Origin: a virus
DNA: 64,000 nt
IMG/VR virus record: IMGVR_UViG_3300022902_000006
Reading direction: 5' to 3' (one strand)
The translations under genes were made by a program, and so were the position numbers. How positions within the stretch are numbered: position 1 is the first letter of the stretch; every line of letters starts with the position of its first letter. The notes beneath the pieces are model-generated. The model searched no databases, had not been told where the DNA came from, and saw only the letters and a program-made list of their open reading frames with translations. This document shows, piece after piece, positions 1,846-63,491 of the stretch.

Positions 1846-1892
1846 CGTGGGGCTCCGGTTTACCCGGTAAATCGAAGTTGGTCATCAGTCTC

Positions 1893-2699
1893 CTAGATAA
1901 CAGCAGAGCCCCACACCCAGCGCACTGGGATGTTGGGGGTTTCAGGATGGAACTCGTTGTTTCCGTACGAGTCGTCGATGTCAGTGAGGGCCACATCAGC
2001 AGTCAACCCGGGGAGTATCTTGCGAGCGTCACCACAAAGAGTGTACAGCTTCGCGTCACCAAGATGGCGTTCAATGCGCGGGAGTACCCAGTTGCGTAGG
2101 GGCTTCGACCTCTCCACGAGAGTCACCGTCTTGACAGTTCTCTTGCGAGTCACGTCGATGAGTTGGTGTCCGAGGCCCAGACCGGCGATGACCGTGTGCT
2201 TGCGCGCCTTGGTGACCCCTGGACGCAGCGTCATGATCTCCATCGGGGTTAGAGACATCCAGGTCTTATCACGACCACCATCGCCTCGCCGAAGTGAGGG
2301 GATAACGACGTCCCCGTCGAAAGCGACCCAACCGATGCGGTTGCCGCAGGCAGTATAAAGGCGCGTGTGCTTCGGCAGGATGGCGTTGAGGTAGTGCATA
2401 TCCGTACCGGGGATGCTGATGTACTCAGATGGCGTCATGTTCTTGCGTACTTGGTTTTCGGTGGGGCGCAGTTCGGGAGCCAGGTTCCGAGACCCCAACC
2501 AACGATTGTAGCTGTCAGCGGAGATCATCATCCACTCGCGCCACTTCATCTTCGGGTTCCATGGTACTGCGTTCTTGGCGTCCTTCTTTATGAACTGTGC
2601 TACCTCTTTCCCGAGCGCATCAATGCGCTTCTTGAAGAGTATGTACGGGATCATTGCTTGCTCTATTCTCCGCAACTCCCGCATGGCCCATAAGCTCAC
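1893..2699 (-). CDS. class I SAM-dependent methyltransferase / spermidine-synthase-like fold protein
   Basis: VIAGLGLG motif I, VTLVERS acidic motif II, GDARKIL and VALTDI downstream strands. Confidence 0.65.
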   Translation of the reverse strand: MSLWAMRELRRIEQAMIPYILFKKRIDALGKEVAQFIKKDAKNAVPWNPKMKWREWMMISADSYNRWLGSRNLAPELRPTENQVRKNMTPSEYISIPGTDMHYLNAILPKHTRLYTACGNRIGWVAFDGDVVIPSLRRGDGGRDKTWMSLTPMEIMTLRPGVTKARKHTVIAGLGLGHQLIDVTRKRTVKTVTLVERSKPLRNWVLPRIERHLGDAKLYTLCGDARKILPGLTADVALTDIDDSYGNNEFHPETPNIPVRWVWGSAVI

Positions 2700-3349
2700 C
2701 CGGTGCCTCCTTCGGCAAAATGCTTATCCATGTCTCTGAGTTCAGCTAATCGCTTTGTGTGGTAGTCGTGGCTGTAGTCCACAAAGATATGGTGCTGACT
2801 AATACACGCCGTCACCATATCCATGCGCAGGCTTTGTTCGTGTACCTGAACACCGTTGAGTACCGCGTGAGACCCCGGCGAGATGTAGTATTGCACTAAG
2901 CGGAGCACGTCGAACGTCTGGTCGTTACCTACGAAGGGGTACAACCACAAGGGGACCCCGGCGATGTCCGCGTACGCCTGGCGCTGTTCCTTGGCCCAAT
3001 CCAACGGTGGAACAGGGTGTCGTCGCAGTGCGTTTATCAGCGCCAGTTCGCCGAAGTGGTGAGACCACGACGCGTTCTTACCAACAACGACAATGGGCCA
3101 CTTATCTTTGGACCCAGTGCGGGTCACTACTAGCCCCGTGCTCGTGGCCATGGTGCTTTGCCGCAGGATGTAGAGCACGGTTGATTTACACGCTTTGGAT
3201 AGATCACGGTTACGACCAACCTCCGTTGTAACCCTGATCTTGATATCGAAGTCGTGCACAAGGAGCTTGGCGAGTCTGCGCAACTCTTCCCACTTCTCGT
3301 CTACGATGTGGAAAGAAACAGGGGTGCTTACTTGAGAGAGGAAGTCCAC
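2696..3349 (-). CDS. hypothetical protein (217 aa)
   Basis: 4-nt overlap with next gene; no motif recognised. Confidence 0.6.
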   Translation of the reverse strand: MDFLSQVSTPVSFHIVDEKWEELRRLAKLLVHDFDIKIRVTTEVGRNRDLSKACKSTVLYILRQSTMATSTGLVVTRTGSKDKWPIVVVGKNASWSHHFGELALINALRRHPVPPLDWAKEQRQAYADIAGVPLWLYPFVGNDQTFDVLRLVQYYISPGSHAVLNGVQVHEQSLRMDMVTACISQHHIFVDYSHDYHTKRLAELRDMDKHFAEGGTG

Positions 3350-3768
3350 GGCGACCCTGCGTTTGAACCCATGGAGAGGTTATCGAAGATGTCGTTAAGC
3401 TCCCCACTCTTCAGCATCTGTGCGAATTTATCAATCTTGGGCACCCCCTGGAAGCTCCCCAAGACGCGTACCCACATGCGAGCTGGAATAACCCCGGTAC
3501 CAAGCCCCAGGTTCAAGAGCTGCTGGAGTGTATTGAAGAAAGGGATGATCGTACGTACGAGGAGTTCGAACAGTTTGTGGGCCTCCATCGTCTTCACTAT
3601 GTGTGCTGCGTTATCTGCCGACGCTTGTGCCGAAAGGGACACGCAGGTCTGCGATAGGCTCTCATGTGAGGAGGCGATGCGCTGCAGGGAGTTGGACCCT
3701 AGTTGGATGCACTCAAGGATGCTCTGCCCCGTGGGGGTACTGAAGAACTCACCCAGCTCAGTTGGCAT
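3328..3768 (-). CDS. hypothetical helical protein (about 146 aa)
   Basis: Start re-picked at ATG 3768 (MPTELGEFF), overlapping the end of 3758..4156. Confidence 0.55.
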   Translation of the reverse strand: MPTELGEFFSTPTGQSILECIQLGSNSLQRIASSHESLSQTCVSLSAQASADNAAHIVKTMEAHKLFELLVRTIIPFFNTLQQLLNLGLGTGVIPARMWVRVLGSFQGVPKIDKFAQMLKSGELNDIFDNLSMGSNAGSPWTSSLK

Positions 3769-4156
3769 CGCCGCTTGCACCCTTCTTCTCTTTCTCGTAG
3801 TCCTGCCGTAGAGCAACACCACCCCACCACACGATGAACTCGGGGTTGATGTCGTCACCTTTGAGGAGGTCTTCCATCTCCTGTTGTAGCCCCTCCTTGA
3901 AGCCCGGCGAGCGGTGCACGTCTTCCCCACGATTGAACTTGTCCAAGAGGCCAATCTTCTCAGCGACCCTGGCCTCTACACCCTTCATGGTGTTGGCGTA
4001 CTCACATGCAGGGCAGTTTGGAAGATGTGCACGTAGCCACTCAACACGTTTCGCCGGTTCACGGGCGTAGAAGCGGCCTGCCTCAACCGTCTCTTCGCAG
4101 TACCCTGAGCGCCAGATGTCATTGAGCTTGTCAGCATTGGATTTGGTGGTTGTCAT
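3758..4156 (-). CDS. hypothetical protein with CPAC motif (132 aa)
   Basis: Coupled ORF; C..H..CxxC possible zinc site. Confidence 0.6.
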   Translation of the reverse strand: MTTTKSNADKLNDIWRSGYCEETVEAGRFYAREPAKRVEWLRAHLPNCPACEYANTMKGVEARVAEKIGLLDKFNRGEDVHRSPGFKEGLQQEMEDLLKGDDINPEFIVWWGGVALRQDYEKEKKGASGDAN

Positions 4157-4644
4157 ACTGCACTCTCCCAGATGACGTTCCCCGGCTTCATGCGGTCACA
4201 GGGGTCGTACCCCCTCTTGGACCACTTCTTCGCGAGTTCGTCCGCTCGTGCGTGTGTGATGTAGCAGTGGTCAGCGACGGCCCAGAGGTACCAGGTGATG
4301 GAACGCCCCGTGGTGACGGAGCGCCCGCGCTGTCCGAAGTCTGTGATGCGCTTGTTCGCGTGGTCGTACCCAAGACAATCGGTGCCGTGGTAGCGGAAGA
4401 GGATGAGACCCTCGGGGTAGTGGCACCCCCGCCTTTCAGCCTGTGCGGTATCTACGGACGGGGGTTGCCCCTGCTGCAAACACACCAAGCGGCGTTCGCA
4501 CCCTTCGCAGCATGTACCTTCGTCCCAGGACGGGAGCCGCATTGCACCTGTGACTACCACAGAATGGTTGCCACCATTGCCAGAGAAACCAGTGCGCAGA
4601 GCCTCGCTCAGCTCTTTGGACCGCAACTCATTTGATGAGGGCAT
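4153..4644 (-). CDS. hypothetical Cys-rich protein (163 aa)
   Basis: Overlaps both neighbours by 1-4 nt; CCEGC motif. Confidence 0.6.
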   Translation of the reverse strand: MPSSNELRSKELSEALRTGFSGNGGNHSVVVTGAMRLPSWDEGTCCEGCERRLVCLQQGQPPSVDTAQAERRGCHYPEGLILFRYHGTDCLGYDHANKRITDFGQRGRSVTTGRSITWYLWAVADHCYITHARADELAKKWSKRGYDPCDRMKPGNVIWESAV

Positions 4645-6029: not shown

Positions 6030-6295
6030 GAGTCTTTGTAACTCTCCTTCCCGCGTGACGTAGCAACTAATCGCGGGGGTGATTCACCATTCATGATGAG
6101 GCGATGCTCCGCCTCCAGTTCACTGATTGCGTCGTACACCTGGCCCTGCAACGTGATCGCCACGAGATGGGCCTTTCTGTTGATGTTGGGGTACAGAGCA
6201 GCGGCAAGCTCTTCTCTGCTCATGGGGTCCTCCGCTTTGTTGATGATTCCAAGGACCCGACTCTTCACACTCGACTTCGTGGGGATTGCACTCAT
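6026..6295 (-). CDS. small winged-helix-like protein (89 aa)
   Basis: VLGII..PMSREELAAAL..VYDAISELEAEHRL pattern typical of wHTH. Confidence 0.5.
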   Translation of the reverse strand: MSAIPTKSSVKSRVLGIINKAEDPMSREELAAALYPNINRKAHLVAITLQGQVYDAISELEAEHRLIMNGESPPRLVATSRGKESYKDS

Positions 6296-6912
6296 TTCTT
6301 GCCCTTCTCATGCTCGTAGTACCTCACCGCGTGTGCCGCCACCGTGTCGAATGCCTCTGGACCCCCGAAAGGGAAGGTCGTGCGCAGATTATGCCAGGCA
6401 CGCCCAATACCGTATGCTGCCTGGTCGTCGTGCACATCCGTCTGGCGCCGGTGCAGCGCGACGTACCCGGAGGTTAGCTCCGCGAAGTTGGTGGCTTGGC
6501 GCATGGTGATCTCCGTCCACGGAGGGAGGGGGTCATCGTTAGCGTGGGATTTACCCGGTAAATCAAGGTCCTCCCCAGCCTGCGCGACGATGCGGTCAAA
6601 CTCTATGGCACCTGCGGGGTACTCGGCGCGGATGCAGAAGATACCCAACACGAACCCCCACGCACGTACGTGGATGGGTACTGTCTTGTGCGCTGCGATC
6701 CACTGCACGAAGTTGTTACCGAAGGTGCTGGCTTCCTCCAGGATGTAGTCCTGGTGTGCCTCGGCTTGCGCAACAGGATCCACGTGCCCACCTTGATGAA
6801 CCTGTGCATCATCTTGTCCGAGGAACGTTTGGGCGAACTGATCCCCGAAGTGCTCACCGTCCGGCTTAGCTGGTTTGTTCGTTAGGCGTGTTGGGTTTAT
6901 TGTATCAGGCAT
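6292..6912 (-). CDS. hypothetical protein (206 aa)
   Basis: Overlap-coupled ORF. Confidence 0.6.
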   Translation of the reverse strand: MPDTINPTRLTNKPAKPDGEHFGDQFAQTFLGQDDAQVHQGGHVDPVAQAEAHQDYILEEASTFGNNFVQWIAAHKTVPIHVRAWGFVLGIFCIRAEYPAGAIEFDRIVAQAGEDLDLPGKSHANDDPLPPWTEITMRQATNFAELTSGYVALHRRQTDVHDDQAAYGIGRAWHNLRTTFPFGGPEAFDTVAAHAVRYYEHEKGKK

Positions 6913-12223: not shown

Positions 12224-12358
12224 AGGAAGCACTCCTTCTAGTTTACGGCGTAAACTTTGAAGCTCCGAAGGGCGGGCTTCACTAACTTGTACCAATAAAA
12301 TCTATGTTTTTTGCCACTTAGCCGGTATACACTATTGCCCAAGGAGAAGACTACCCAC

Positions 12359-18475: not shown

Positions 18476-18907
18476 ATGTTCACGCTTACACCCTTTGAAG
18501 AAACACTGGCGCAACCCTTCAGCACGTCTGTTGCGTTGGAGAACATCCGCCTACGTCTACTGCAAGGTGCGTTGCTGCCTGCTGATACTACCCGCTCTGC
18601 ACGCTATGTTCACCTGCAAGCGTTTCGTAGTGAGCTGGCTCTCATCCTTCGCGACCTCACACCCCCACCCACCACTTCCATGCTCTCTACCCCCTTCGCA
18701 GACCGCGCGCCAGTGGTGGCCTTGGCTACTGATTTACGGCGTAATTCGGATTTGAGACTAGCGGTGGATGAGCTATATGTTTTGGGGGCACCAGGCGAGT
18801 ATCGAGAAATGTTGGTTCCTTATACCGACGCAAAGAACCCACGAGAGTGGGTGGATTGTATGTGTGCAATCCTTTGCCTGGCCAAGCTGTTGGAAGCGAC
18901 CCCATGA
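18476..18907 (+). CDS. hypothetical protein (143 aa)
   Basis: ATGA overlap with downstream hub gene. Confidence 0.6.
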   Translation: MFTLTPFEETLAQPFSTSVALENIRLRLLQGALLPADTTRSARYVHLQAFRSELALILRDLTPPPTTSMLSTPFADRAPVVALATDLRRNSDLRLAVDELYVLGAPGEYREMLVPYTDAKNPREWVDCMCAILCLAKLLEATP

Positions 18908-26065: not shown

Positions 26066-29000
26066 CGATAACAGGGCTACGAGGGCACGGACTCCTCCAA
26101 GGTCTGTCCGATTTTTGGACAGTGTACTTCAAGGACCGCGACCAGCTTGAAGCATTGTACGAAGCAACGGAAGTGCTCCTCGGACAGGCGTACCTGGACA
26201 TGCTCTCGTCGTTCTTGAACATCGGACTCGGGGACACCCCCATCTTCAATAAAGAATTTTTCAAACTCATGTCCGCGCGTGAGAGCGACATTACCTACCG
26301 CGAAATTTGGTATGCGGGTGTCGAGGTGGAACGCGCGTACATGAACATGCCGGACAACGTCGCAAAGGCACACATATTCCAGAACAAAGTGTTCGACCCC
26401 ACTGCATGCTTGGAGGTGGATTCAGATTTCGAAGTGGACGAGGAATACTACTGGTTCAAGTTCCTCACGGATCCTTCCGGCACGTTTGGAAAAACCCTGG
26501 GAAAAGCGACGGCAGGGTCACTGGTCACCTACGGTACGTTGTCCAAAGCGTACTCAGGGAGTACCGAGGCACCGTTCCAATACGCGAAGGCAGGGGATTG
26601 GTTTGAACTTACCGGCAGTGGGTCCGGTAACGATGATACGTACCCCATCGTGCAGGTATTGGACGCGCAGACAGCAATTATCCAAGGTACGCTGACGTGC
26701 CCCGACGTAAACAACGGCGCGCTCACGTTCAAAGTAAGGGATGCTGAGTTCACTCCTGCGTCTGGATTCGCGGCGCGCAAGGTACCTGTAGCAGTACACG
26801 GGTCCTTCGATGACCCCACCCTCCGCGCTACATCGTCCATGGCATCTTGGGCGGCTGACGCTCCCGTGGGCATTGAGGTTAAGAAAGGTGACGTACTTCG
26901 CCAATTGGTGCCCAATGCCACCCCGATGCGCAAGTTCGCTGACTACGACATCTCAGTTGTACGCCACGGCAAGCTGTTCCTGAAGCCCTCAACTACGGCC
27001 CCCGCTATCAGCGCGCAAACTGGTGTTGATTACTGCATCCTGCGAGACCCAACAAGCCCATACGTGTACGACGAGCCCGTAACCTTCGCGCAGAGTGGGA
27101 CACCAAAGGGGGACGGCAATGGAAGCCTGGAGGTGCTCACCGGGAACAAAGTAAAGCTCACGCTCCCAGGTGGAGCGCCTACCACCTTTGACCTCACAGA
27201 TTCGCGACGGTACGTGACGTTGACGAATTGTGGTGCGTTGAAGTTCACCGCAGACGTCGATTTACGCGGTAACTTGACCTGGACAGGGGGTGTTAAGAAC
27301 CCGTTTACACGTGCTTTTCCCCAAGGGCAAGTCACCATCTCTACCGTCGGACCACCGGGGCCAAACGATGGAGACCACACCATCGAGTCAATCTCTGCGG
27401 GTGGGGAGGCGAAGTTAGTTGGCACCTTCGCGCCCGAACTAGGCGCAACCGTTACCATCAAGGTGGAGACCAACGCAGGCACGTACCAACTACGGCAACG
27501 CATCAGCTCCCTGGCTATAGAACTGGACCTGGACGCAGCAGCAGACGACTTGAACAACGGTACCATTCTGTGGGTCGTGCATGATGGCTACCGCACGAAC
27601 CTCTCACCACACGCGCATTTGGTGGAGGGGAGTGTAGATGTAAACAAGGGCATCGGGAGCCCCACCACAGGAGGCTACCGCGAGCTAACCACGAGCGACT
27701 ACGCAGTGGTGCCTGAGATTGGTGAAGTGCTCCAGACGGGACGTCTCGCGGGTACGTGGGCTCTTACCGCAGCGACGGCAGCACATATCTCATACCAATG
27801 GAAAAAGGAAGTCGTGCCTCTGACCAGCACCGGGGTGTTCGCGGTTGTAACAGAGACGCTCGTCAATGAGGTGGCGTTGTGGGCACCTGACGTATTGGTG
27901 GACAAGTATCACCTGTACGAGACTTACGGCTACATGATCAATCGCTTTGAACCCTCATCCGAAGCCTACCGTGCGTTCCTTCAAGGGATCTTCCGTCTGT
28001 ATATTGTAGGCCCTGTGTTGAAGCACATCGAAGCAGCGATGAATGTCATCGGGCGCTTCCCCGTTATTCGTGACGACGGCGAAGTCATGGTGGAGTATGA
28101 CACTAGCGAGACTGAGTACGATGTGGTGCGTACCCTCAACCTGAACGGGGAGTATGTAACCTACGAGTTCACGAAAGGAACACCACTGCGTGAGGAAGTA
28201 ACGAGCTACGTGGATGGCGTGTCAGACGCTGTTACTTTCGAAGCGGCTGACCCCCTCACCACCCTGTTCGTTGTCACCGATTCTGTTGAGGACCCCGTGT
28301 GGTGGGACGATGCCATCATCCCCCACGCCCTACTCCCCGAGGAGTCCATGGCCCGGCGAGCGGCGCAGCCGTCTCTCATCGAACACATTGTGGGGCCGGT
28401 TGATGGTGCCAAGGTCGGTGACCCTGGACTCTTCGTGGGTGCGGATGATGAAGGGGTTGTCCCCGCGTACGGTCACACATACCCACCACTACGCCGCCGC
28501 ATGGCCAACGTGGTGATGAACACGTTTCTCAAGCACAACATCCTGTACGTGTACTTCGATGCGGGCATTCATACGTACATGACAAAGGATTTTGTCCAGG
28601 ATATCCGAGAGCTGTTGCTCATAGCAAAACCAAGCGCCGTCATGATGTACATCGAACCCGCGACAGAACTGCGGGACACCCTCATGCTCACCGAGGATGA
28701 TGTCGGGATGACGGTGGGATGGTCCTTGTCTGATGGAGTAGTGATGGGTGACGACGTCATTACAGTTCAGTCTGGGACCTGGAAAGTAGGTGCGACTTTT
28801 CGACGTCGCACTCCTGTGATTGGACACGCCATCTCTTCCACTGTCCCCACCAACCTCCCAGATGACAACATCATCGCGGCGCGTATAAAAGGTCCGGCGC
28901 ACCGGGACGAGTTTGTGGATTACCTCATCAACTACGAGGACGGTATAATAACTCCAATAGTAACCCCGACAGCGTGGCCCGGGGGGAGCTACACCATTGA

Positions 29001-34195: not shown

Positions 34196-34211
34196 TTTAC
34201 CCCGTAAAGCA

Positions 34212-41036: not shown

Positions 41037-42617
41037 TCAAGGGCTGAAGTACATCCCTCGTGTCACCATCAGTGCACTGTCCTCTTCGTCCGTTATGTTC
41101 ATGAAGGGAAAACCCCTCCAATCCTTCAGGTAGCGAAAGAGATCGTCGAAGTCATAGATCCGGTGCTCGTCAGTCTCTTTCGTGGTCATCACAACAATTT
41201 CCACCGGCCCCGTATCGTGCCTCGACATCTCAACATGGTGCATTTCAGGTTGGCACACAGCGAAGCCACTCTTGTAGCTACACGTGTATGGCCTTCCGTG
41301 TATTAACGACGAGACGCACAACCACAGCGCGAACTTCGAGTGCACCAACAGATCTTTGGTTGCCGGTGCTTGTGCCCACTCTGCATCCAACCTCCGCTGC
41401 ATGTCAGCGGGGAGCCACGCATACAGTCGCCGGTAGCTGGAAAACTTCAGTGCGTCCTCGTGGTACGCAGACACGCTGTCGCGGCGCACGTAGGCATTCA
41501 GAGGGAGTATCCCATCACCGTACAGCGACGCGGGGTTGCGCACTTGACTCAGCGTCCACCAGCACTGCCTGTTCGTCTCGGGATTTTGCTTTTTGAAAGA
41601 CACCCCAGCGACCTGTGCAAAGCACCATATCTGGCGCAGCGTCCATGAGGTGTGACACCTCTTCAAGATACCTTGCACGGTGCTCATTATGTAACGGGTA
41701 GCGTGTTCATCAGTCCAACGCTTATGCTTACATCCGCGCGACGCCCAGGGGGTACAGGGGGACCCAAATACGCCAGGTTTAACGACATACGCACTAAAGA
41801 TGCAGTTACTGCATTCCTCCCGATGCATCTTTCGGGTTTCTGCCGCGCTGACCGCATTGGCACTGCGCGCTGCCCACGCTTCGTCAACACCAGTAAAGTC
41901 CGCGTGTACAGGCGTGATGAGACCCTTACCCGGCATATCGTGGTCCGGGGTAATGTACTTGGGAGGGATTGCAGTGTACCCAGCGATCTTTGTCTTCCAG
42001 TACCGAACGTCTTCACGCCATTCATCCGCGTCCAGTTCGGAATCGGTGTCTGAGAAATCAGTGCTGATGGGGACTGTAAACAACTCACGCTGAGCCGGAA
42101 CTGCGATGGTGCGGATGTATTTACGCTGTAAATTGTTGTTGAAGCACTCTGACGTTGACCGGATGGGGCACCCTTCACAGGCAGCAACAGCGTACAACTG
42201 CCTACAGTATTGCCGTATGTCGTCCCCTGCGGGGACACACCACACAAAGTCTTTGCGAGCAAAATACATCGCAGCAATACGTAACTGGAGTACGTACGCC
42301 ATGCTCGACCCAACAAACAGCTTGGTCACTTCAAGAGAGTCTTCGGATTCGGCGTTACCGTATCCGGCGCGACGTGCTCCGAATGTCGCACACGTGTACG
42401 CGAAGACCCCATCGGGAAAGTACTTGGTGATGTCTGGATGACGCATCACTCGCGTTATCTCCGTTTCAGACCAGACTGCGTCTTCTCGGTGAAACACGAG
42501 ACCGACCCCTATCCCTTCATGGGGGCGATGGTGTCTTGCGTATCGGGGTGGTCTATCGGTGCACAGCGTAACCATGAGAGGGGGTATGGGCCTCGACTTC
42601 AGGATGCTATCAGGCAT
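41037..42617 (-). CDS. Cys-cluster hypothetical protein coupled to RT (about 526 aa; candidate retron partner)
   Basis: ATG 42617 overlaps RT stop (ATGCCTGA); Cys clusters C-x8-CxxC-x7-C and CxxC..C..C; the track's longer start lies inside the RT gene. Confidence 0.7.
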   Translation of the reverse strand: MPDSILKSRPIPPLMVTLCTDRPPRYARHHRPHEGIGVGLVFHREDAVWSETEITRVMRHPDITKYFPDGVFAYTCATFGARRAGYGNAESEDSLEVTKLFVGSSMAYVLQLRIAAMYFARKDFVWCVPAGDDIRQYCRQLYAVAACEGCPIRSTSECFNNNLQRKYIRTIAVPAQRELFTVPISTDFSDTDSELDADEWREDVRYWKTKIAGYTAIPPKYITPDHDMPGKGLITPVHADFTGVDEAWAARSANAVSAAETRKMHREECSNCIFSAYVVKPGVFGSPCTPWASRGCKHKRWTDEHATRYIMSTVQGILKRCHTSWTLRQIWCFAQVAGVSFKKQNPETNRQCWWTLSQVRNPASLYGDGILPLNAYVRRDSVSAYHEDALKFSSYRRLYAWLPADMQRRLDAEWAQAPATKDLLVHSKFALWLCVSSLIHGRPYTCSYKSGFAVCQPEMHHVEMSRHDTGPVEIVVMTTKETDEHRIYDFDDLFRYLKDWRGFPFMNITDEEDSALMVTRGMYFSP

Positions 42618-45733: not shown

Positions 45734-46744
45734 GTGAGAGACCAATTCCACGACCCAGCACACGCACACCTCTACGCCCTCCTCGAAGGGCAAGAAGAAG
45801 TAAAGACATTTGCAAAGCACGCCGAGCTGGATGTCGCAAAGGCTGAAACGCTGCCCGCCGGTGCCTTCGCGTGGCCGTCCAAACGCATGTATCCGGTGAA
45901 CACCCCGGAGAACACGGTGCTTTCTGTGATGTACCGTGACAAGTCCGCGTCTGCGGTCCCCCCGGAAGTCGACGCAGCGCTGAGCACCGCCTGCGAGATT
46001 TACGGCGTAAATGACCTACTCAGTCGTGCCCGTGTCGTGGGTGCTGCTCGCCACCAGGAGAAGATCGCCTCAGTGCAAGACGACGCGGTGTGGATCCTCC
46101 CGGGCCTAAAACGCCTCCGGGTCAAGACCGCCTCCGACCTTCAGCAGGCCGAGACACTCCTGCTCAAGCAGTACAACAAGCTGGCCCTGAATGACCGCGT
46201 GGAAGGTTTTGTCAATCTCGTGAAGACTGCACGGGACTTGGGCGTGACCCTGCACCCCCTGACCCACCGCATGGCGGGCATGACAGTGTGCACCGCAGAG
46301 AAGACCGCTGAACTCATCGAGGGACGGCGCTGCGCCGTGAAGGACCCCCTATTCAAGCAGGCGTACTCCCGGCTGGGTGGTGCGTTCCGTGAGAGGGGCG
46401 GCATCATCAGGGACCGTGAGGAACTCGTCAAGGCCGCATCTGCGCTGGCGACCATCGACAGCAACGCAGGCATCGCCCACCAGTATGGCACCACCATTCC
46501 CGACCCCATGCTCACTGTCTTCAGCGAGAAGCAGGCCGAGGACGTGGTGAACCTGGATGGTTCCGAAATCCCACTGACCACACTGCTCGGCCTCCCCGTG
46601 ACATTCTGGGAAGACCTCCTGGGGCCTGAGATCAGTGCAGAGATTGCACCTGATGGCGCCGTGGACCCACAAAAGCTGCAAGAGGTGCTCCCCACGCTGC
46701 CCCTGGACCTCCGCATCGCCTTGAAAGCCCAGCTCCCCTCGTAA
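45734..46744 (+). CDS. hypothetical protein (about 336 aa), possibly head-assembly related
   Basis: GTG at 45734 after GGGAGAG; recurring K-x-A motifs; function not established. Confidence 0.6.
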   Translation: MRDQFHDPAHAHLYALLEGQEEVKTFAKHAELDVAKAETLPAGAFAWPSKRMYPVNTPENTVLSVMYRDKSASAVPPEVDAALSTACEIYGVNDLLSRARVVGAARHQEKIASVQDDAVWILPGLKRLRVKTASDLQQAETLLLKQYNKLALNDRVEGFVNLVKTARDLGVTLHPLTHRMAGMTVCTAEKTAELIEGRRCAVKDPLFKQAYSRLGGAFRERGGIIRDREELVKAASALATIDSNAGIAHQYGTTIPDPMLTVFSEKQAEDVVNLDGSEIPLTTLLGLPVTFWEDLLGPEISAEIAPDGAVDPQKLQEVLPTLPLDLRIALKAQLPS

Positions 46745-49253: not shown

Positions 49254-50801
49254 GTGCAATTTCCTCCACGACTGCGCTCTGAACTAGCGCAGAAATTACT
49301 GTACCTGGACGGGGAGCCCTTCACGCTCCAGGACTATCCGTTCTTCCGTGCCGTGTACGACGGGAACTTTTCTGAGGTCCTCCTCAAATGTGCACGACAG
49401 GTAGCTAAGACCACCACTCTCTGCAACTTCATCATTAGCGAGAGTCTCGGCATCCCCCACTTCAAAAGCCTTTACCTCTCCCCGAGTCAGGAACAAACGC
49501 AGTCGTTTTCCAATACCCGTCTCGGGAAGGTGGTGCACTACTCCCCCATCGTGCGTAGATACTTCTCAGTCTCCGACTTCACGCACCGCACCATGCTTCG
49601 TATGTTTCGTAACGGATCCGAGGTGAAGCTCACCTACGCCACTGATAACCCCGATCGTGCACGCGGCAACTCGGCTGACCGGGTGCTGTACGATGAGGTA
49701 CAGGACATCCTCTACCGCGAGGTCATCCCTGTTGTGAATGAGTGCATGGCGAACTCGTCATACCAGTGTGAGATATACGCGGGCACACCCAAGACGATGG
49801 AAAACACCATCGAATACCTGTGGAGCCTCTCCACGCAGTCGGAGTGGATCATACAGTGCACAGGGTGTGGCAAGCACCAATTCATTGAGGGGGTGCGCTC
49901 GCTAGGAAAACACGGACCCATCTGTTTGCACTGTGGAAAAGGGCTCAACCCGCGCCTGGGCCAGTGGTACGACTTCAATAAAGAATCGACCATGAAAGGC
50001 TTCCACGTCTCCCAGCCCATGCTCCCACTGAACTGCGAGAACCCTCATCGCTGGGGCAAGCTGCTGACCAAGGTAGAGCGTTATCCTGAATCACGCCTCA
50101 AGAATGAGGTGTTCGGTGTCTCCGACGCAATCGGCGCACGCCTGATTAGCAAAGACGAACTGGAGAGTCTGTGTGAAAACTACGACATCTTCCGCACACC
50201 ACCCCCTACAGCCCAGGAACAATTCTCCCATGTTGTAGCGGGGGTCGACTGGTCCGGCGGCGGTGTAACAGGGGTCAGCCGCACTGTCCTTTGGATCTTC
50301 GGCGTTACCAAGGACCACCGACTCAAGACCCTCTACTTTCGGATTTACCCCGTAACCAGCCCGGTCACCATCGTGGACGACATGGTAGAGGTGATGAACA
50401 ACTACCAGGTGGAGCGCGTTGTAGGCGACCGGGGAGAGGGGCACCTGGGCAACGACCAGCTCCGACACAAGATGGGGAAACACCGTGTTACCGAGGTACA
50501 GTACGGAGCACAAGCGAGCGCCATCTCGTGGAACGACTTGGGCAGCTTCTACACCGTGGACCGCACCATTGTAATGGACAATTACTTCATGGTACTGAAG
50601 AGGGGGGCTGTTGTGTACCCCAACCTCTCATACATGACAGTGCCCATCCAAGACATCCTGAACCTCTACGAAGAGGTCACAAAGGTGGGCCGCAAGGTGT
50701 GGCGACACGCGCCTACACAACCTGACGACTCCTACCACGCACAGCTATTCGCCTGGCTTGCTGCAAAGATGATTCTGATGGACCTGTCGTTCAACGGATA
50801 A
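49254..50801 (+). CDS. terminase large subunit (lambda GpA-like)
   Basis: Walker A ARQVAKT, RARGNSADRVLYDE Walker B, AGTP coupling motif, CTGC..CLHC Zn ribbon, AGVDW nuclease motif, PDDSYHA. Confidence 0.88.
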   Translation: MQFPPRLRSELAQKLLYLDGEPFTLQDYPFFRAVYDGNFSEVLLKCARQVAKTTTLCNFIISESLGIPHFKSLYLSPSQEQTQSFSNTRLGKVVHYSPIVRRYFSVSDFTHRTMLRMFRNGSEVKLTYATDNPDRARGNSADRVLYDEVQDILYREVIPVVNECMANSSYQCEIYAGTPKTMENTIEYLWSLSTQSEWIIQCTGCGKHQFIEGVRSLGKHGPICLHCGKGLNPRLGQWYDFNKESTMKGFHVSQPMLPLNCENPHRWGKLLTKVERYPESRLKNEVFGVSDAIGARLISKDELESLCENYDIFRTPPPTAQEQFSHVVAGVDWSGGGVTGVSRTVLWIFGVTKDHRLKTLYFRIYPVTSPVTIVDDMVEVMNNYQVERVVGDRGEGHLGNDQLRHKMGKHRVTEVQYGAQASAISWNDLGSFYTVDRTIVMDNYFMVLKRGAVVYPNLSYMTVPIQDILNLYEEVTKVGRKVWRHAPTQPDDSYHAQLFAWLAAKMILMDLSFNG

Positions 50802-52181: not shown

Positions 52182-55095
52182 GTGTGTGTCCTTTCAAGTA
52201 GTCGTCGATGGGGTTTACCTCACCGTAGTTTGGACCCGCATCAACATCCCAGAGAAACGGTACCGTGAGCCAGTTAAACCTCTTTGCTACTCGGCGAGTG
52301 CCGTACTCATAAATAACATCTTTGATCTGCGAAGTGTACTTGTGTGGGATTGAAAACACAATGGAATCGTGCACGGTTGCATGGTAAGCGCCGCCCATGT
52401 CGTTGGTGACCACGGGGAACAGCTCATTCATGACCCACAATACGATGTCTGAACTGGTGCTTTGAATCTTGAAATTCACGCCCTGCCGAAAACAGCGATT
52501 GCGAAACATGTACTGGTCGGCGAGCGGGAACCGGCGTTTCCGTCCTGTCTTGGTGTACAGGCTCTTGAACAACCGGATTTCATTATGCGTAGCTTGGATG
52601 TACTCAGGGATGGAAGGAAACATCTTGAACATCAAGTTGATGACGTCCTGTGCCTCTTCTTCTGAGATCCCTGCCGTTAGCGAAATGGTGTACTTGCCTG
52701 CACCATACAACACACCAAACACAACGCGCTTGGTAATGGTGCGCTTCATCTTCAGGAAATCACGGCGTTCCTTGGGGATGCTCTTATCGCCACGCTTCGC
52801 CGCTACGATTTCATCGTAGTCCAGGCCGAAGACCTTGGAAGCGAAGAAGGAGTGAGTGTCCATCCCGGCCAGGATGGCGTCGATGAGCTGCTTATCTTTC
52901 GCGTACGCAGCGAAGATGCGAACCTCTGCACCTTGCGCGTCAGTGTCGATGAGCGTCATTCCAGGCAGGGGCCTGAAGATCTTCTTGATGTTGTGCCCTG
53001 CCAGCCAATGCGGGATGTTCTGCAGGTTTTCGTCTGACGACGACAAGCGCCCCGAGTTGGTACCGATGATATGCACTGAGGCGTGCATCCTACCGTCGAT
53101 GCGTGCGTGGTCTCGCACATTAACGAGGAAGGGGCTCCGCGCTTTAGATGCTTTACGGTGCGTCAGGAGGAGCTTCGGGAAGTTATACCCATACTGCTTT
53201 TGGATGTAGAGCAGCGTATCTTCATCTGCGCTGACACCCGTCTTGGTGCGTTTAATGTCGTCGGTGAGGGGTACCACAACCCGCTGTCCGTCTTCGACGA
53301 ACCCTGTGTTGAACAGGATGTTAGAGACTTGCGGAAAGCTGGAGACATCAAAGGGGCTACCGACGCTTTCGTATAGCTCCCTCTCCGCCTTATCAATCTC
53401 ACCCTGGAGGGCCGTATCCACGGACTCCAAATACGGAAGGTCTACAGGGAACCCCGTATACTTCATCCGCGATAGCGTATTACTGGTAGGGATGACGTGG
53501 GTACGCATAAGGCGCCCCACGGGACGACTATCCGACGCACGCTCTACCCCGAGAACAGTCCTGCGCAAGCGTAGGTCCGTAGCATGCTCCGCCCGAAGAC
53601 GCCGCACCTGGTGCAAAACGTGCTGACGCGTTACGTCGGCATCGATAGCAGCGTAGAACTCCAGGTCCGGGATAGGAATCTTCGTGTAGTCGAAGGGCTC
53701 TTTTGCGGTTGGGCGTGATGGTGGCTTGGGTGCTCGTGGCTTGGGCGGTTTTTTCCCCCACGCAGCCTTATCCATGCGCCGCTTCTCTGACTTCGCCAGT
53801 ATCTTTTCAGCGGCTTTCGCACCATGCCACTTATCCATCGCAGCGCTGTACCGTGCGTACAGGGGTTCGTACGTGGTCTGCTTTACGGCGTAAATCCGCA
53901 GCCGATCCTCGTACTTTTCCATGGCTTTACGAAAGCGCTTTGCTTCCTGCGCCCTAGTCCCACTGCCGTAGCGCTCCCGCTCTTCATCAACCTTGTCTTC
54001 GTACCCCGCGTACTTGGGGAGGCGTGCTCGGGTCAAGTTCTTCAAGCCGTACTGGCCTTTCTTGTCCTCCTCCAAGAGGTGCTCACCGGGCATGGTGTCC
54101 CACGCCACATTCTCCAGGGGCCACCCGTACGCACACTCAATCATCTGCGAGTCGTACTGATGGTTGTGCAGCGCTTTGGGCTTCTTGGACGCCAAGACTT
54201 GGATAACCCAGTATTTGACCTCTTCCAACTCTTCTGGAGTCCACCACGCATCTGGGTGGTCTAGGATGATGGTTGTAGCTAACCGCTCATCCCACGCAAA
54301 AGAGATGGCAATCATCAACCGTGTAGGGTCCCAAGGTTCCAAGGTGTTCGTCTCAGTATCCACTGAGATGAGGTGCGCTTCAGGGTCCCCACCATTCACT
54401 GAGTACCCAATGATTTCTGTGCACACATCTTTGACTTCATCCACGGTGCGCGGAAAGATGTAGGTCTCTCGCAGGTACGCCTCGCTGTGCTTGTCCGCAC
54501 CGAGCCCACCGCCCTCAGCGAACGCAAACGCTTTGGTCAGGTCCCGGCACATCTCATCGAACAAGCCCGGTTTGGCCAACACTGCTTTGGGTGCGAGGGT
54601 GGGGCACACATAGAACTGCTGACGGCGCACGGCACCCTGAACAAAAGTACCTCTCACACTTTCGAAATTCTTTATATGAGGGAGGAGAACCTCGGTCGCC
54701 GCTGCACCGAATGGGATGATCAGCGTGGGCTTCAGCGTTTGAATCAGCGCATCCAGGTGCACCTTGCACTTATCGTGCGCGGCCTTGCTTGGCTTCTCCG
54801 ACGCACACTGGACCGTGTACGCCTTGTGTACCTGGAGGGCGTTGAAACGCGCCATACCTTCTGGGGTACTATCGTACTCCTTACGCACGGCGTTATACGC
54901 TGCTTGTATAACCTTACCAGGACGGTCCAGGAAAGGGACAAGCTGACTGGAGTATTCGAGGTCTGGAGCTTCGCCTAAAAGGAGTACCGTGGTGCCACCC
55001 GGGGCAGGAATCGCATCAGGGTGCACCCGTATCGGCTCTTCGAAGAGCGGACAACCTTGGCATGCAATTGGTTTTAACGGAGTGACATTTCCCAT
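52117..55095 (-). CDS. family A DNA polymerase with N-terminal family-4 UDG-like domain and 3'-5' exonuclease (SPO1 gp31-like architecture)
   Basis: CQGCP..GEAP UDG-like domain; VDTET, HNHQYD exonuclease; GRLSSSDENLQNIP, DAQGAEVR, KRVVFGVLYG, VNFKIQS, TVHDS. Confidence 0.92.
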   Translation of the reverse strand: MGNVTPLKPIACQGCPLFEEPIRVHPDAIPAPGGTTVLLLGEAPDLEYSSQLVPFLDRPGKVIQAAYNAVRKEYDSTPEGMARFNALQVHKAYTVQCASEKPSKAAHDKCKVHLDALIQTLKPTLIIPFGAAATEVLLPHIKNFESVRGTFVQGAVRRQQFYVCPTLAPKAVLAKPGLFDEMCRDLTKAFAFAEGGGLGADKHSEAYLRETYIFPRTVDEVKDVCTEIIGYSVNGGDPEAHLISVDTETNTLEPWDPTRLMIAISFAWDERLATTIILDHPDAWWTPEELEEVKYWVIQVLASKKPKALHNHQYDSQMIECAYGWPLENVAWDTMPGEHLLEEDKKGQYGLKNLTRARLPKYAGYEDKVDEERERYGSGTRAQEAKRFRKAMEKYEDRLRIYAVKQTTYEPLYARYSAAMDKWHGAKAAEKILAKSEKRRMDKAAWGKKPPKPRAPKPPSRPTAKEPFDYTKIPIPDLEFYAAIDADVTRQHVLHQVRRLRAEHATDLRLRRTVLGVERASDSRPVGRLMRTHVIPTSNTLSRMKYTGFPVDLPYLESVDTALQGEIDKAERELYESVGSPFDVSSFPQVSNILFNTGFVEDGQRVVVPLTDDIKRTKTGVSADEDTLLYIQKQYGYNFPKLLLTHRKASKARSPFLVNVRDHARIDGRMHASVHIIGTNSGRLSSSDENLQNIPHWLAGHNIKKIFRPLPGMTLIDTDAQGAEVRIFAAYAKDKQLIDAILAGMDTHSFFASKVFGLDYDEIVAAKRGDKSIPKERRDFLKMKRTITKRVVFGVLYGAGKYTISLTAGISEEEAQDVINLMFKMFPSIPEYIQATHNEIRLFKSLYTKTGRKRRFPLADQYMFRNRCFRQGVNFKIQSTSSDIVLWVMNELFPVVTNDMGGAYHATVHDSIVFSIPHKYTSQIKDVIYEYGTRRVAKRFNWLTVPFLWDVDAGPNYGEVNPIDDYLKGHTHDTTGQQEEREAEAAARLSFQ

Positions 55096-58663: not shown

Positions 58664-59467
58664 CTAGTATGCGGGACACACGGGGCGCTGCCCGCAGTAG
58701 TCACACAACCAACCTTTGATGGCCTCCCGTTTCTGTGTGGCGTCAGCCGCTGAGGCCAGCCACGTTTCGAACTCACGACGTAGGATCGGCAAATCATGCG
58801 TACGAGTCAGCGCGGTACCCCAGCGAATACGACTTCCGTCCTTATCCGGGTCGGCTCCCGGGTAGTGAACAGCCGGACGAACCGACTTCAGCTCAGGGTA
58901 TGCTACGAATGCGCCAAGCGAGTACACGCGGAGCTGCGGGAGGCGCTCCTCGATTGCGATCTCTTCGCCTGCTTTGTGGTCAAGCACGATGCCGTGCCAT
59001 TGAGGGGTGATGAGGAGGAGGTCAATGATACCCCGGAACAGGGCGTCCTTGCCCCACCAGCCACACGGCTTGTACAACGCCGTCATCGCCAACTTATGTT
59101 CCGGGTATTTACCGCGTAAACCAAACTTGGCTTCGAACGCTGCCATGCGGTCGCGGAAGTCCTCGATAGCTTCGCGGTACATCATGACCCGCTCTGTCAT
59201 CTCATACGTGAGTGGCTTCTTGCCCAGCGCCATTTCGTACGCGACGCTGACCTTGGCACCCTTTGCCACCAGTTCCAGGATGTAGTGCACCGCGTCCCCG
59301 ATGCACGAAATAGCAGAGCGGGGCTCCTTCGACTTGGCCTTCTTACGGTACTGTTGGTGATATGCGAAGGGACACGTCTTGGCTGTGCTCCCTTTTGAAT
59401 ACGTCCAGGGGCGTGCAGCCTCGATGTCGGGAGTCACCAATACCACATGCTGTTCAGAATCGGCCAC
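58664..59467 (-). CDS. PD-(D/E)XK nuclease (RecB/Cas4-like)
   Basis: TCP..Y, GDAVH, GIIDLL..LDHKAG, QLRVY, C-terminal CDYC..C. Confidence 0.8.
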   Translation of the reverse strand: MADSEQHVVLVTPDIEAARPWTYSKGSTAKTCPFAYHQQYRKKAKSKEPRSAISCIGDAVHYILELVAKGAKVSVAYEMALGKKPLTYEMTERVMMYREAIEDFRDRMAAFEAKFGLRGKYPEHKLAMTALYKPCGWWGKDALFRGIIDLLLITPQWHGIVLDHKAGEEIAIEERLPQLRVYSLGAFVAYPELKSVRPAVHYPGADPDKDGSRIRWGTALTRTHDLPILRREFETWLASAADATQKREAIKGWLCDYCGQRPVCPAY

Positions 59468-60611: not shown

Positions 60612-60639
60612 TTGTAGTGAACTATGCGCCATGTATAAT
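60612..60639 (+). promoter_or_regulatory. sigma70-like promoter TTGTAG-N16-TATAAT
   Basis: Perfect TATAAT at 60634-39 in an AT-rich intergenic region, 7 nt before ATG 60647. Confidence 0.6.
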
Positions 60640-60646
60640 CTGGCAC

Positions 60647-61483
60647 ATGCCCCAACACGACGAAGTTGCCGCAATCTACCACCGTGAACTACACGCCCTC
60701 GACCTGTGTAACCCCCGCCAAGAGCGCGAGCTACTTTGCCGATACCACGAGCACCGAGATATCGCGGCGCGCAACACACTCGTGAAGAAGAACTTGAGAT
60801 TCGTTGTTCGTGTTGCGCGGAAGTGTGCCAAAGGGGACACAGAGGCTCTGGCCAGTTTTGTATCTGCAGGAAACGAAGGTCTAATCGTCGCCGCAGACAA
60901 ATACTGTCCGTGGGTGATCCCTTGCCCCGAATGTGACACTCCGAACTACGTACATCAAACCAAACGCCAGCGCTGCAAACGATGCAACCGCGCCCTTCGC
61001 AGCGCTGACGCTAAGAAATTCACCACGCGCTTTCTAACCTACGCAGGGTGGTGGGTCCTGGAAGCCATTCGCACGGACATGTATCGGATGGGCCATGCTG
61101 TCCACGTACCACCCCACAAGATCAAAGAGATACAACGTCGCCGTGACAAAGGCGAAGACGCCCCGGGCATTGTAGGAGTTCCCTACGCTGACGCTGCTGA
61201 CGATGAATCCCTTACAGGTACAGACGCACTCGCAGCCACTACCCTACGCCACAAAACACGCCGCGCCATTCAACAACTTCCGCCACGCAAAGCCTACATC
61301 GTCGCAGCCTACTTCGGCCTACGCGGAGACCGCGCACGCACACTCAAAGAGATTTCCGTGCTCTTGGACATATGCCCAGAACGAGTACGGCAACTCAAAG
61401 AAGTTGCGATGCGGATGTTACAGGGGTACTTGGCGGAATACGCTGAATCAGCGGAGGGGGGAGAACTGGCGTTGTTGGCCTAG
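60647..61483 (+). CDS. sigma-70-family sigma factor with Zn-ribbon insertion
   Basis: KKNLRFVVRVARK, AGNEGLIVAADKY, RFLTYAGWW, region 4 RTLKEIS..CPERVRQL; start re-picked at ATG 60647. Confidence 0.85.
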   Translation: MPQHDEVAAIYHRELHALDLCNPRQERELLCRYHEHRDIAARNTLVKKNLRFVVRVARKCAKGDTEALASFVSAGNEGLIVAADKYCPWVIPCPECDTPNYVHQTKRQRCKRCNRALRSADAKKFTTRFLTYAGWWVLEAIRTDMYRMGHAVHVPPHKIKEIQRRRDKGEDAPGIVGVPYADAADDESLTGTDALAATTLRHKTRRAIQQLPPRKAYIVAAYFGLRGDRARTLKEISVLLDICPERVRQLKEVAMRMLQGYLAEYAESAEGGELALLA

Positions 61484-62427
61484 AAGGGGGAGTCGCGGAA
61501 GCCCGCGACCCACTCCAGAGCCTTGGCAGCGCCCTGCAGCATGGTCTTGGTCTTGTCGCTGCGCGCGCTGGCGTGCTTCTCGTACGTGGCACCCAGGGTG
61601 TCCTTGATGTCCGTCTTGCCCCGGGTGTTGATGGCGTTCTTCTTGAGGCGCTCCAGGAGCGTCTCCAACCCCTGACGTGCCACATCCGGGGTGCCCTTGT
61701 CGTCTGCCGCCGGGGGACGACCGCGCCCCTTCTTGCCCTTGCCGCCCTTCTTGGCCGCAGCCTTGGCAGCGGTGGTGCCGACGTCGCTTGAGGTGCGGGA
61801 CTCCCCACGCAGGATCGCCTTGAACTCCTTGAGCTGCGCCTCCGGAGAGGACAGCTTGCCCAGCTCACGGCAATGGGCGAAGGTGATCTTCTTCTTCCGC
61901 AGCCCCTCCTGCACCTGCTCCGGGAGATCCAGGAGCGACAGACGCTGGGAGATGTACCCCGCCGAGCACTTGAACACCTTCTCAGCCAGCATCTTGGCGG
62001 TGATCACGACCGACTTGGCGTTGCCCGGGAGCACGCCCTTCTGGCCGATGATGCGCCTGAACTGCTCAGCCTCCTCCAGCGGGGCCAGGTCGGAGCGGCC
62101 TGCGTTCTCCACCGCCCGCACCAACTCCAGCGCGGTCTCGTCGGTGCCGTCCACGATGATGACGGGAACCACCTTGCGCCCGGCCAGCTTCGCCGCACGC
62201 CAGCGCCGCTCACCCGCGACGAGCTGGAGCACACCCTCCTCCACGTAGCAGGACAGGGGGTTGAGAACACCCACCGTCTTGATCATCTGCGCCAGCCCTG
62301 CCAGCTCGTCCCGGGCGAAGTCCTTGCGGACATTGGCCCCCTTGATGCGGTTCACGTCGCCGATGGCGACATCGTACTTCTGGCCCACGACGTACTCAAC
62401 GACGGTGGGCGTTTTCTTTGCGGTCAT
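61480..62427 (-). CDS. parB: ParB/Spo0J-family partition protein
   Basis: GVLNPL, LVAGERRWRAA CTP-binding motif, VENAGRSDLAPLEEA, HTH SAGYISQRLSLLDLP; basic C-terminal linker. Confidence 0.9.
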   Translation of the reverse strand: MTAKKTPTVVEYVVGQKYDVAIGDVNRIKGANVRKDFARDELAGLAQMIKTVGVLNPLSCYVEEGVLQLVAGERRWRAAKLAGRKVVPVIIVDGTDETALELVRAVENAGRSDLAPLEEAEQFRRIIGQKGVLPGNAKSVVITAKMLAEKVFKCSAGYISQRLSLLDLPEQVQEGLRKKKITFAHCRELGKLSSPEAQLKEFKAILRGESRTSSDVGTTAAKAAAKKGGKGKKGRGRPPAADDKGTPDVARQGLETLLERLKKNAINTRGKTDIKDTLGATYEKHASARSDKTKTMLQGAAKALEWVAGFRDSPF

Positions 62428-62822
62428 GTTCTGACCTCCTCCTGTTGGGGTGGTGGTGATACAACTTCTTCAGCCTCTTCTGCTTCGGTCTCTTCTTCGT
62501 GGGGCACGATCTGCTTCGTCTTCATCGCCTCGGTAGCGGCGTTGGCGATGCCCATGAACTTGGTGGCCTGCGCCACGATCTTTGCGCTCGGAAACAGCAC
62601 GCTCGCGGCTTGCACTGCCGCGTTGCTGAGTCCGAGGATGGTCCGGAGACCCCGCTCAACGCGGTCACGATCCAGCCGCTTCTTGCGCCGGGTAGCGAAC
62701 TCCAGATCATCTGCGAACTGATTGAGGCGATCGAGAAATCGATCGAGTAGGGTACGTGGTTCTTTGTTGCGGCGAAATAGCACTCGTTTAGCCTTCCTTG
62801 AGTATCTTCTGTACTTCATCAA
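62424..62822 (-). CDS. hypothetical protein (132 aa)
   Basis: Coupled to ParB start; exact start uncertain. Confidence 0.55.
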   Translation of the reverse strand: MMKYRRYSRKAKRVLFRRNKEPRTLLDRFLDRLNQFADDLEFATRRKKRLDRDRVERGLRTILGLSNAAVQAASVLFPSAKIVAQATKFMGIANAATEAMKTKQIVPHEEETEAEEAEEVVSPPPQQEEVRT

Positions 62823-63021
62823 GGTCTAGGTATCGCAACCGTGTGGCCCCCAGAGGCTTCCCCTCCAGGATGTCACCGACTACGAAAAAGAATTCCGTGG
62901 CGATGTCTTGCGCTGGTACGTCTAACGCTGTGTAGTACGCACGATACACGGCACGGATAAGGCGATACCGATACAGGATGTCATGAGTGACAATCCCCGC
63001 TTTACTTGTTTTCTTCGGCAT
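62788..63021 (-). CDS. small hypothetical protein (about 77 aa)
   Basis: Start re-picked at ATG 63021 overlapping upstream ORF end. Confidence 0.5.
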   Translation of the reverse strand: MPKKTSKAGIVTHDILYRYRLIRAVYRAYYTALDVPAQDIATEFFFVVGDILEGKPLGATRLRYLDLDEVQKILKEG

Positions 63022-63424
63022 CACTCTCAAACGGTTTGGTGCCACAATCCGCAGAACACTTCGGAACGTTGACCCGATCTCCAGGTACCAAGGGTGCACC
63101 GCAAATAGGGCACACAGCCCCATCCGTGCTGGCCTCCTTCACCTTCCCAGGGTCTTCATCTACTCCGAGTTTTTCCACATAGCACCTATTCGTAAAGAGG
63201 GTGGACTGGTCCGGCTTCAACTTGCCGTGGTAGCGGTAGCGGTAAAGACCCCGAGTGGAGTCTTCTGCAATGCACACAATGTGGTGTCTTTGCTGTCGCA
63301 GATCCGAAATGCGCCCGGTGTACTTGAGAGCGATTCGACACAATTCCCAGTTGTACGCACCTCGTTGGCCGCGTTCTTTCAGAAATTGTAGGATCTTTGC
63401 GCATTGGTTATCCAGGCGTCCCAT
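63002..63424 (-). CDS. winged-HTH protein with C-terminal CxxC
   Basis: KILQFL..YNWEL..YTGRISDLRQQ HTH pattern; CPIC..KC..C. Confidence 0.6.
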   Translation of the reverse strand: MGRLDNQCAKILQFLKERGQRGAYNWELCRIALKYTGRISDLRQQRHHIVCIAEDSTRGLYRYRYHGKLKPDQSTLFTNRCYVEKLGVDEDPGKVKEASTDGAVCPICGAPLVPGDRVNVPKCSADCGTKPFESDAEENK

Positions 63425-63435
63425 CTAGCCACCTA

Positions 63436-63465
63436 GAGGACCCTCTTGTACCACGGGAGGTCCTC
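63436..63465. terminator. intergenic hairpin (possible terminator)
   Basis: GAGGACC...GGTCCTC 7-bp stem next to a TTTAC-N3-GTAAA site; no clear U-tract. Confidence 0.35.
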
Positions 63466-63491
63466 AGTTTACGGCGTAAAGGGTGGGGGAG

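Follow-up and report, generated by a model that had tools for sequence, protein, structure and literature searches.

The window analysed here, a 64,000-nucleotide stretch of viral DNA from IMG/VR record IMGVR_UViG_3300022902_000006, carries a 13-bp palindrome, TTTAC-N3-GTAAA, which recurs as a nearly even grid along its whole length, and a ParB-type gene whose product we propose as the putative binder of these sites. Around them lie genes for a terminase large subunit, a large primase, a helicase and an RNase HII, together with the other genes listed in Table 1, while most open reading frames (ORFs) show no recognisable domain. The window is part of a novel, uncultured large marine phage.

We located nine exact copies of the palindrome, against 0.00 expected and none in 100 dinucleotide-preserving shuffles. 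Allowing one mismatch raised the number to 12 sites versus 0.44 expected, the richest shuffle containing two. Among all palindromes of 5+5 type with gaps of 0-9 bp, TTTAC-N3-GTAAA ranked first by a wide margin (9 versus 0.02 expected from half-site counts). The gaps between the 12 sites range from 3538 to 8528 bp, about one site per 5.6 kb, with a coefficient of variation (CV) of 0.28, and none of 20,000 sets of 12 randomly placed points matched this regularity. The three one-mismatch sites occupy the largest gaps left between the exact sites. No canonical parS was found in the window within 3 mismatches. Contigs from sequencing runs showed no variant at the three sites they cover; being assembled, they are uninformative on nicks, ends or modification.

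Eight of the 12 sites are intragenic and four are intergenic. In the coding sites, one reading frame is shut by the TAA of the second arm, and the other two read Leu(TTA)-x-x-Lys/Asn or Tyr-x-Val(GTA)-x. TTA makes up 2.8% of the Leu codons in the window, 46 in total, and five of these lie in sites, three exact and two with one mismatch (18733 and 27261). Synonymous-codon shuffling within genes gave 0.07 exact coding sites against the five seen, and the four intergenic sites are untouched by this shuffle. Thus, the enrichment persists beyond a codon-aware null, and the palindromes are under selection at the DNA level. The first-pass annotation, made from the letters alone, had already proposed such selection from the unusual TTA codons, with a codon-shuffled null as the check. 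The features on which it built were all recovered: nine exact copies, three one-mismatch copies at 18733, 27261 and 50344, a spacing of 3.5-8.5 kb throughout, four intergenic and five coding exact sites (three of the latter through TTA-Leu) and no match to canonical parS.

Table 1. Palindrome sites and genes of the window.
Feature	Position	Strand	Remarks
Site	1859..1871		exact, intergenic; upstream of gene 1528-1845 (-), 13 nt from its ATG (1845) and 2 nt from a GGAG
Site	6550..6562		exact; within gene 6292-6912 (-); Leu(TTA)-Pro-Gly-Lys(AAA)
Site	12242..12254		exact, intergenic between divergent genes; upstream of gene 11624-12223 (-), 18 nt from its ATG (12223) and directly preceding its GGAG
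Site	18733..18745		one mismatch (second arm GTAAT); within ORF 18476-18907 (+); TTA-Leu; in the 22-kb gap between exact sites
Site	27261..27273		one mismatch (second arm GTAAC); within 1178-aa gene 26062-29598 (+); TTA-Leu; same 22-kb gap as 18733
Site	34196..34208		exact, convergent gap; begins at the first base past the stop codon of gene 33668-34195 (+)
Site	42120..42132		exact; within gene 41037-43007 (-); TTA-Leu
Site	45999..46011		exact; within gene 45656-46744 (+); Tyr-Gly-Val(GTA)-Asn
Site	50344..50356		one mismatch; within the terminase large-subunit gene
Site	53882..53894		exact; within the PolA gene
Site	59108..59120		exact; within the PD-(D/E)XK exonuclease gene; TTA-Leu
Site	63468..63480		exact, intergenic; upstream of a minus-strand run (63424 to 61480) ending in parB, 43 nt from the ATG (63424) of its first gene
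XRE helix-turn-helix protein	9071-9463	-	basic linker followed by a C-terminal zinc ribbon with four cysteines (CPNC...CRYC)
Class II (B12) ribonucleotide reductase	35518-38166	-	with TSCPD domain
DUF2201/VWA metallopeptidase-like protein	44301-45668	-	kept in all four relatives
MoxR-like AAA protein	47374-48792	-	kept in all four relatives
Terminase large subunit	49254-50801	+
PolA with UDG-like domain	52117-55095	-	992 aa; N-terminal uracil-DNA-glycosylase (UDG)-superfamily domain, 3'-5' exonuclease, DNA polymerase A
PD-(D/E)XK exonuclease	58664-59467	-
Sigma-70 region 4 domain protein (sigma-like)	60617-61483	+	288 aa; convergent with parB, 4-bp overlap
ParB-type protein	61480-62427	-	315 aa; putative binder of the sites

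Is the grid a property of this phage alone? No close relative was found among 50,697 deposited phages (megablast gave no match, and tblastn of PolA gave only relatives of about 25% identity). Scans of viral contigs with the single ParB and PolA sequences also gave no matches, whereas alignment-based scans matched 45 records with terminase and 80 with ParB. For the window phage itself the 64-kb window is the part covered; the complete genomes are those of relatives. Quick terminase trees showed the lineage as a five-way polytomy, with the grid present in three of its five clades, namely A (the window, G002 and G003), B (G022, G025, G026 and G029) and E/F (G047, G052 and G071). It is absent from clades C (G019-G021, G023 and G031) and D (G001, G039 and about 20 more), which have at most one site in records of up to 190 kb, and from the outgroups. 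Exact sites number 6 in 69 kb (G002) and 23 in 198 kb (G003, complete) among the clade A relatives, and 5 in 36 kb (G022), 11 in 113 kb (G025), 21 in 179 kb (G026, complete) and 1 in 16 kb (G029) in clade B. In clade E/F we counted 3 sites in 31 kb (G047), 16 in 123 kb (G052) and 10 in 102 kb (G071), and in further records 16 in 130 kb (G027), 5 in 31 kb (G030), 2 in 20 kb (G051), 3 in 16 kb (G053) and 5 in 57 kb (G070). The reversed-pattern control was 0 in all 14 grid-bearing records, and the G+C content of grid-bearing genomes spans 46% to 63%.

The regularity seen in the window returns in both complete grid-bearing genomes. The 23 exact sites of G003 have a CV of 0.39 and a largest gap of 13.7 kb, and the 58 sites of G026 at no more than one mismatch (control 1) have a CV of 0.48 and a largest gap of 6.2 kb; in each case none of 20,000 random placements was as regular. 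In orthologous genes of the window, G003 and G026 the sites stand at non-homologous positions, where the relatives show other residues and codons; G003 also has a site at the place corresponding to 63468 of the window. The grid is thus renewed at new positions in each clade while its spacing is maintained, and this turnover at kept spacing suggests a distance-dependent function at the level of the DNA. The flanking base next to each arm differs by lineage: it is mostly A, with T absent, in the window, and C, with A and T both absent, in G003. With these lineage-specific flanks the sites effectively extend to 15 bp, their ends differing between clades and perhaps co-varying with residues of ParB.

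The grid is limited to large phages of this lineage among the 45 relatives matched by terminase and the 30 viral records that carry ParB; 24 other viral records with generic ParBs, mostly phages and proviruses of 35-70 kb, have no site, and 0 sites were found in 712 kb around metagenomic generic bacterial ParBs recovered by the ParB-alignment scan. Two other repeats were seen in the grid-less G001. One is TTCGTC-N3-GACGAA, with 4-7 dispersed copies and a 5+3+5 geometry like that of the grid motif, too few for a grid and absent from G039; the other consists of six GCAAG-N4-CTTGC hairpin repeats clustered within 200 bp (L143, about 118,900-119,100).

The ParB-type protein has two Pfam domains, ParB_N (PF02195, E 5e-15) and HTH_ParB (PF17762, E 2e-11), and no other; Pfam likewise bore out the XRE protein, so that both identities given in the first-pass annotation hold. 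The nucleotide boxes GERRWRA (GERRxRA/GxxRxxA) and ENAGR (EN..R) align with those of homologs. Ahead of the fold lie only 30 residues, short and non-amphipathic, without the LG(R/K)GL-type ParA-contact peptide that is present as LGxGL in the consensus of bacterial homologs. A Lys/Gly-rich, disordered linker leads to a three-helix C-terminal domain (249-307, pLDDT 82-92) that is kept in relatives; the C-terminal dimerisation domain PF23552 gave no Pfam match. An AlphaFold model from a 62-row alignment reached a mean pLDDT of 88, and above 90 over the helix-turn-helix part, and its best Foldseek matches were ParB with CDP or CTPgS, Noc, ParB-parS and the KorB-KorA-DNA complex (8qa9, TM 0.69). 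By sequence, the solved structures that come nearest are those of Spo0J, Noc and ParB (E about 1e-20), KorB being more distant at E 2e-7, while the DNA-binding part alone is nearest Noc, also aligns to Spo0J and reaches only E 0.3 with KorB. We are therefore confident, on the strength of the predicted model, that the protein has the ParB/Noc/KorB fold. Its closest homologs are P0001 (71%), P0003, P0004 (on a 186-kb contig) and P0005. As a side observation, the ParB-like genes of L130 (G022), L183/L184 (G071/G070) and L137 (G014) have one in-frame TAG or TGA within the match, which could be a sequencing error, a broken gene or a stop-codon reassignment.

Does ParB track the grid? A profile of the window-type ParB matched at full length in every grid-bearing record. 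With a broader profile, the grid-less clades also yielded a ParB-like ortholog, in the corresponding location some 10 kb from the terminase, so that there is no contrast of presence and absence; the contrast sits in the recognition helix. All 11 aligned ParBs from grid-bearing records share G-x-(V/I)-S-(Q/H)-x-L-x-(L/F)-(L/F)-x-(L/M), which in the window reads ...GYISQRLSLLDLP, and in four of four aligned orthologs from grid-less clades this helix is replaced (...SWVSYHYK... in clade D, ...TIKNWLAF... in clade C). The co-occurrence of motif and ParB, which the first-pass annotation named as a check, holds in one direction, as every grid record has the protein, and fails in the other, as the protein also occurs where the grid does not.

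Based on these observations, we consider it probable, though well short of certain, that the palindromes act as parS-like sites, dispersed over the genome, at which an orphan ParB clamp loads to cover the whole of it, in an arrangement closest to that of KorB and its operator OB. The sites, their selection at the DNA level, their even spacing and their conservation in relatives are results of this analysis, as are the fold and boxes of ParB. A ParB dimer would read the two TTTAC arms through its helix-turn-helix domain, leaving the central three bases free, and would then behave as ParB, Noc and KorB do, with CTP binding followed by closure into a clamp that slides away along the neighbouring DNA, a behaviour predicted from its family membership. 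KorB acts on promoters as far as 1.5 kb from its operator, and in tweezers experiments it slid along about 3 kb of DNA (PMC11790492). If the phage clamps likewise reach a few kb, one site per 3-9 kb would cover every gene of the ~180-kb chromosome; a short reach combined with whole-chromosome coverage would explain why the spacing is kept while the positions turn over.

What could such a coat do? Its likely role would be to mark or compact the phage DNA genome-wide or to control its transcription over long range, and candidate effects are silencing or activation of phage genes, compaction or a condensate, and marking of the phage DNA. Silencing or activation has precedents in KorB, BisD (PMC12409273) and VirB (PMC10770331). 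The first-pass annotation had suggested that the sites organise, segregate or compact the phage genome. Organisation or compaction may be the outcome, whereas segregation in the classical sense is unlikely, as neither a ParA-type ATPase nor an integrase was found in the complete relatives and the protein has no ParA-contact peptide; the lack of a ParA partner makes ParA-driven segregation improbable. It is conceivable, although we offer it tentatively, that an orphan ParB-CTP clamp and a self-renewing even grid together coat the whole chromosome of a large, probably virulent phage and thereby either set up a protein-based 'self' compartment or condensate against host DNA and defences or form a mobile transcription switch. 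As a switch, clamps sliding from the grid would act on the sigma-like factor of the phage, whose gene forms a convergent pair with parB in four of the four complete relatives examined (G003, G026, G001 and G039), with a grid or none. T4 late transcription is activated by a sliding clamp and would be a functional analogue. Natural fusions of a ParB fold with Sigma70 occur in bacteria according to a 2025 survey of the ParB-CTPase fold.

Several points weigh against ParB as the reader of the grid. A ParB-like ortholog can occur without it, and about 15 genes of unassigned function match its presence pattern. The distribution of the grid on the terminase tree needs two changes, possibly one, so that on this fork the association of ParB and motif is carried by few independent events. 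The grid-less clades show no replacement palindrome grid: none emerged in G001, beyond the two repeats described above, or in G039. A contiguous k-mer Markov scan was insensitive even to the real motif. Coverage of the phage's own genome is limited to the 64-kb window. Finally, the DNA-binding domain is by sequence nearer Noc and Spo0J, and the geometry of the site is KorB-like.

Another phage DNA-binding protein could occupy the sites, with ParB unrelated to them: the XRE/zinc-ribbon protein, the sigma-like protein or an unassigned one. Room for such a protein exists, since most ORFs of the window have no recognisable domain and the 64 kb covered are a third of the phage's own genome. We screened the reading frames of G003 for those with a homolog in G026 whose counterpart in G001 and G039 is absent or much weaker. 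ParB was the only recognisable sequence-specific DNA binder to pass, along with a reductase, a UDG, a 91-aa zinc ribbon and about 15 frames of unassigned function, most of them without a Pfam match. These co-occurring proteins show no recognisable DNA-binding domain save the zinc ribbon, which has a weak homolog in G001. The XRE protein, named in the first-pass annotation as an alternative to ParB as the binder, has a homolog in G003, but none was found in G026, complete and with 58 sites, which disfavours it; the sigma-like gene also occurs in G001 and G039, which lack the grid. The ParB half of that proposal fares better, as the grid is found only with a ParB-type recognition helix and the protein has the ParB/Noc/KorB fold and boxes. 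With the recognition helix following the grid, we regard a binder other than ParB as unlikely.

The sites might instead be targets of an enzyme, for modification (e.g. by a ParB-activated thymine dioxygenase, PMC13229309), for nicking, for the initiation of replication or as hotspots of recombination. The phage has an extensive set of genes for DNA metabolism, and phage ParB-like activators of 5mYOX dioxygenases exist (PMC13229309), but those activators have no DNA-binding domain, whereas the ParB of the window has HTH_ParB. Tet_JBP (PF12851) gave no match in five relatives, a weak argument since the control was silent too. Lone 13-bp sites within genes are unlike origins, and we judge enzyme targets to be a very unlikely explanation.

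Dispersed centromeres provide a further alternative, for which phage N15 with its four scattered SopB sites is the model: ParB-bound sites on a plasmid-like prophage would be segregated by a motor of the host or by an undetected ParA-type one. A ParB-family protein together with dispersed palindromes would fit, and no tyrosine integrase was found in two complete and three partial relatives (controls 14/14), which would allow a non-integrating lifestyle. However, no ParA-type ATPase (PF13614, PF01656) was found in the complete G003 and G026 or in three further records (controls 14/14), nor among the scanned ORFs of the window, and the ParA-contact peptide of bacterial homologs is missing. Moreover, partition requires a single centromere or a few of them, not 20-60 at even spacing, and the gene content is like that of a large virulent phage. 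Centromere function is therefore hardly to be expected here. An origin by chance, or as a side effect of composition, codon usage or conserved peptides, can practically be dismissed: it is refuted by the shuffle, half-site, spacing and codon nulls and by the recurrence of the grid at different positions in genomes of 46-63% G+C, and only the one-mismatch terminase site at 50344 overlaps a partly conserved I/V-Y-P peptide.

The remaining features concern the phage as a whole. Its gene content (Table 1) looks like that of a large virulent phage, and its DNA is present in many seawater metagenomes from 2018. Short contigs of a 2025 seawater metatranscriptome match 45741-46832, 48842-49049 and 51236-51500 with few or no differences; such matches place the sequence in an RNA library and fall short of proving transcription. 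In one seawater contig (run X12), the stretch 47462-48755, which makes up most of the AAA gene, seems to be missing, with only 21 letters on the shorter side of the contig. The class II ribonucleotide reductase is found in the grid-bearing G003 and G026 and not in the grid-less G001 and G039, a co-distribution that probably reflects lineage history and not a functional link. A separate UDG-family gene is likewise common to G003 and G026 and absent from G001 and G039.

ParB clamps serve in the segregation of chromosomes and plasmids, in nucleoid occlusion and in the silencing of plasmid genes. A genome-wide even grid in ~180-kb phages without ParA would, if true, be a new use of the ParB switch. 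The selection that keeps the grid is strong enough to put the rarest Leu codon into genes, and the spacing in three phages (3, 5.6 and 8.6 kb) may report the clamp reach needed in vivo. The system is compact, comprising one small protein and one 13-bp site, and hence readily testable, and the sister clades that lack the grid and have a changed recognition helix offer natural controls.

How does the grid compare with known systems? An evenly spaced grid of ParB-type sites in phages is not described in the literature searched, including the 2025 survey of the ParB-CTPase fold. The MatP site of enterobacteria, matS, is a 13-bp palindrome of 5+3+5 geometry with about two dozen dispersed copies. 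The phage site shares this geometry and dispersal but differs in its arms, and matS is restricted to one macrodomain; no MatP (PF06303) was found in five grid-bearing relatives, with a positive control in E. coli. With the chromosomal ParABS system (Spo0J/ParB) the phage protein shares the N-terminal CTPase fold with GERRxRA, HTH_ParB and the 'L.LL.LP' helix signature, whereas canonical parS, ParA, the ParA-contact peptide and the Pfam C-terminal dimerisation domain are missing and the sites are spread, not clustered. From the 5mYOX-associated ParB activators (PMC13229309) it differs in having a DNA-binding domain and in its neighbours, which are the sigma-like protein and unassigned genes.

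Two systems come closer. The site of Noc begins with ATTT, a start it shares with the phage sites, and is an even palindrome of 14 bp, and Noc has an N-terminal membrane helix. Like the phage protein, Noc (PDB 7ol9, 6y93) is an orphan ParB paralog without ParA function and with many dispersed palindromes, and it provides the best match to the DNA-binding domain; unlike Noc, the phage protein has a short, non-amphipathic N-terminus, its proposed site is an odd 13 bp and its grid leaves no site-free zone. The second is KorB-OB. The core of OB (oligo in PMC11790492) is a 13-bp palindrome with outer TTTA...TAAA, and RK2 (IncP-1) carries 12 OB operators (Kostelidou & Thomas 2000, as cited in PMC11790492). 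In both cases a ParB-CTPase-family protein goes together with about a dozen dispersed 13-bp palindromes per ~60 kb, at promoters and within or far from genes; site length and outer bases are shared, and the predicted fold matches KorB. The inner bases differ, however, as OB matches two window sites only, each at 2 mismatches and no more than expected by chance. The phage protein has no KorB-specific Pfam domains and its DNA-binding domain is nearer Noc/Spo0J; no IncC/ParA or known KorA partner was found in the relatives searched, KorA itself not having been searched for. Moreover, the replicon is a ~180-kb phage whose grid runs evenly over the whole genome and is not tied to promoters. With different inner bases, a protein that is not KorB by sequence and missing partners, the phage system is not a member of the KorB system; its dispersed layout is already familiar from RK2, in a phage version that is apparently undescribed.

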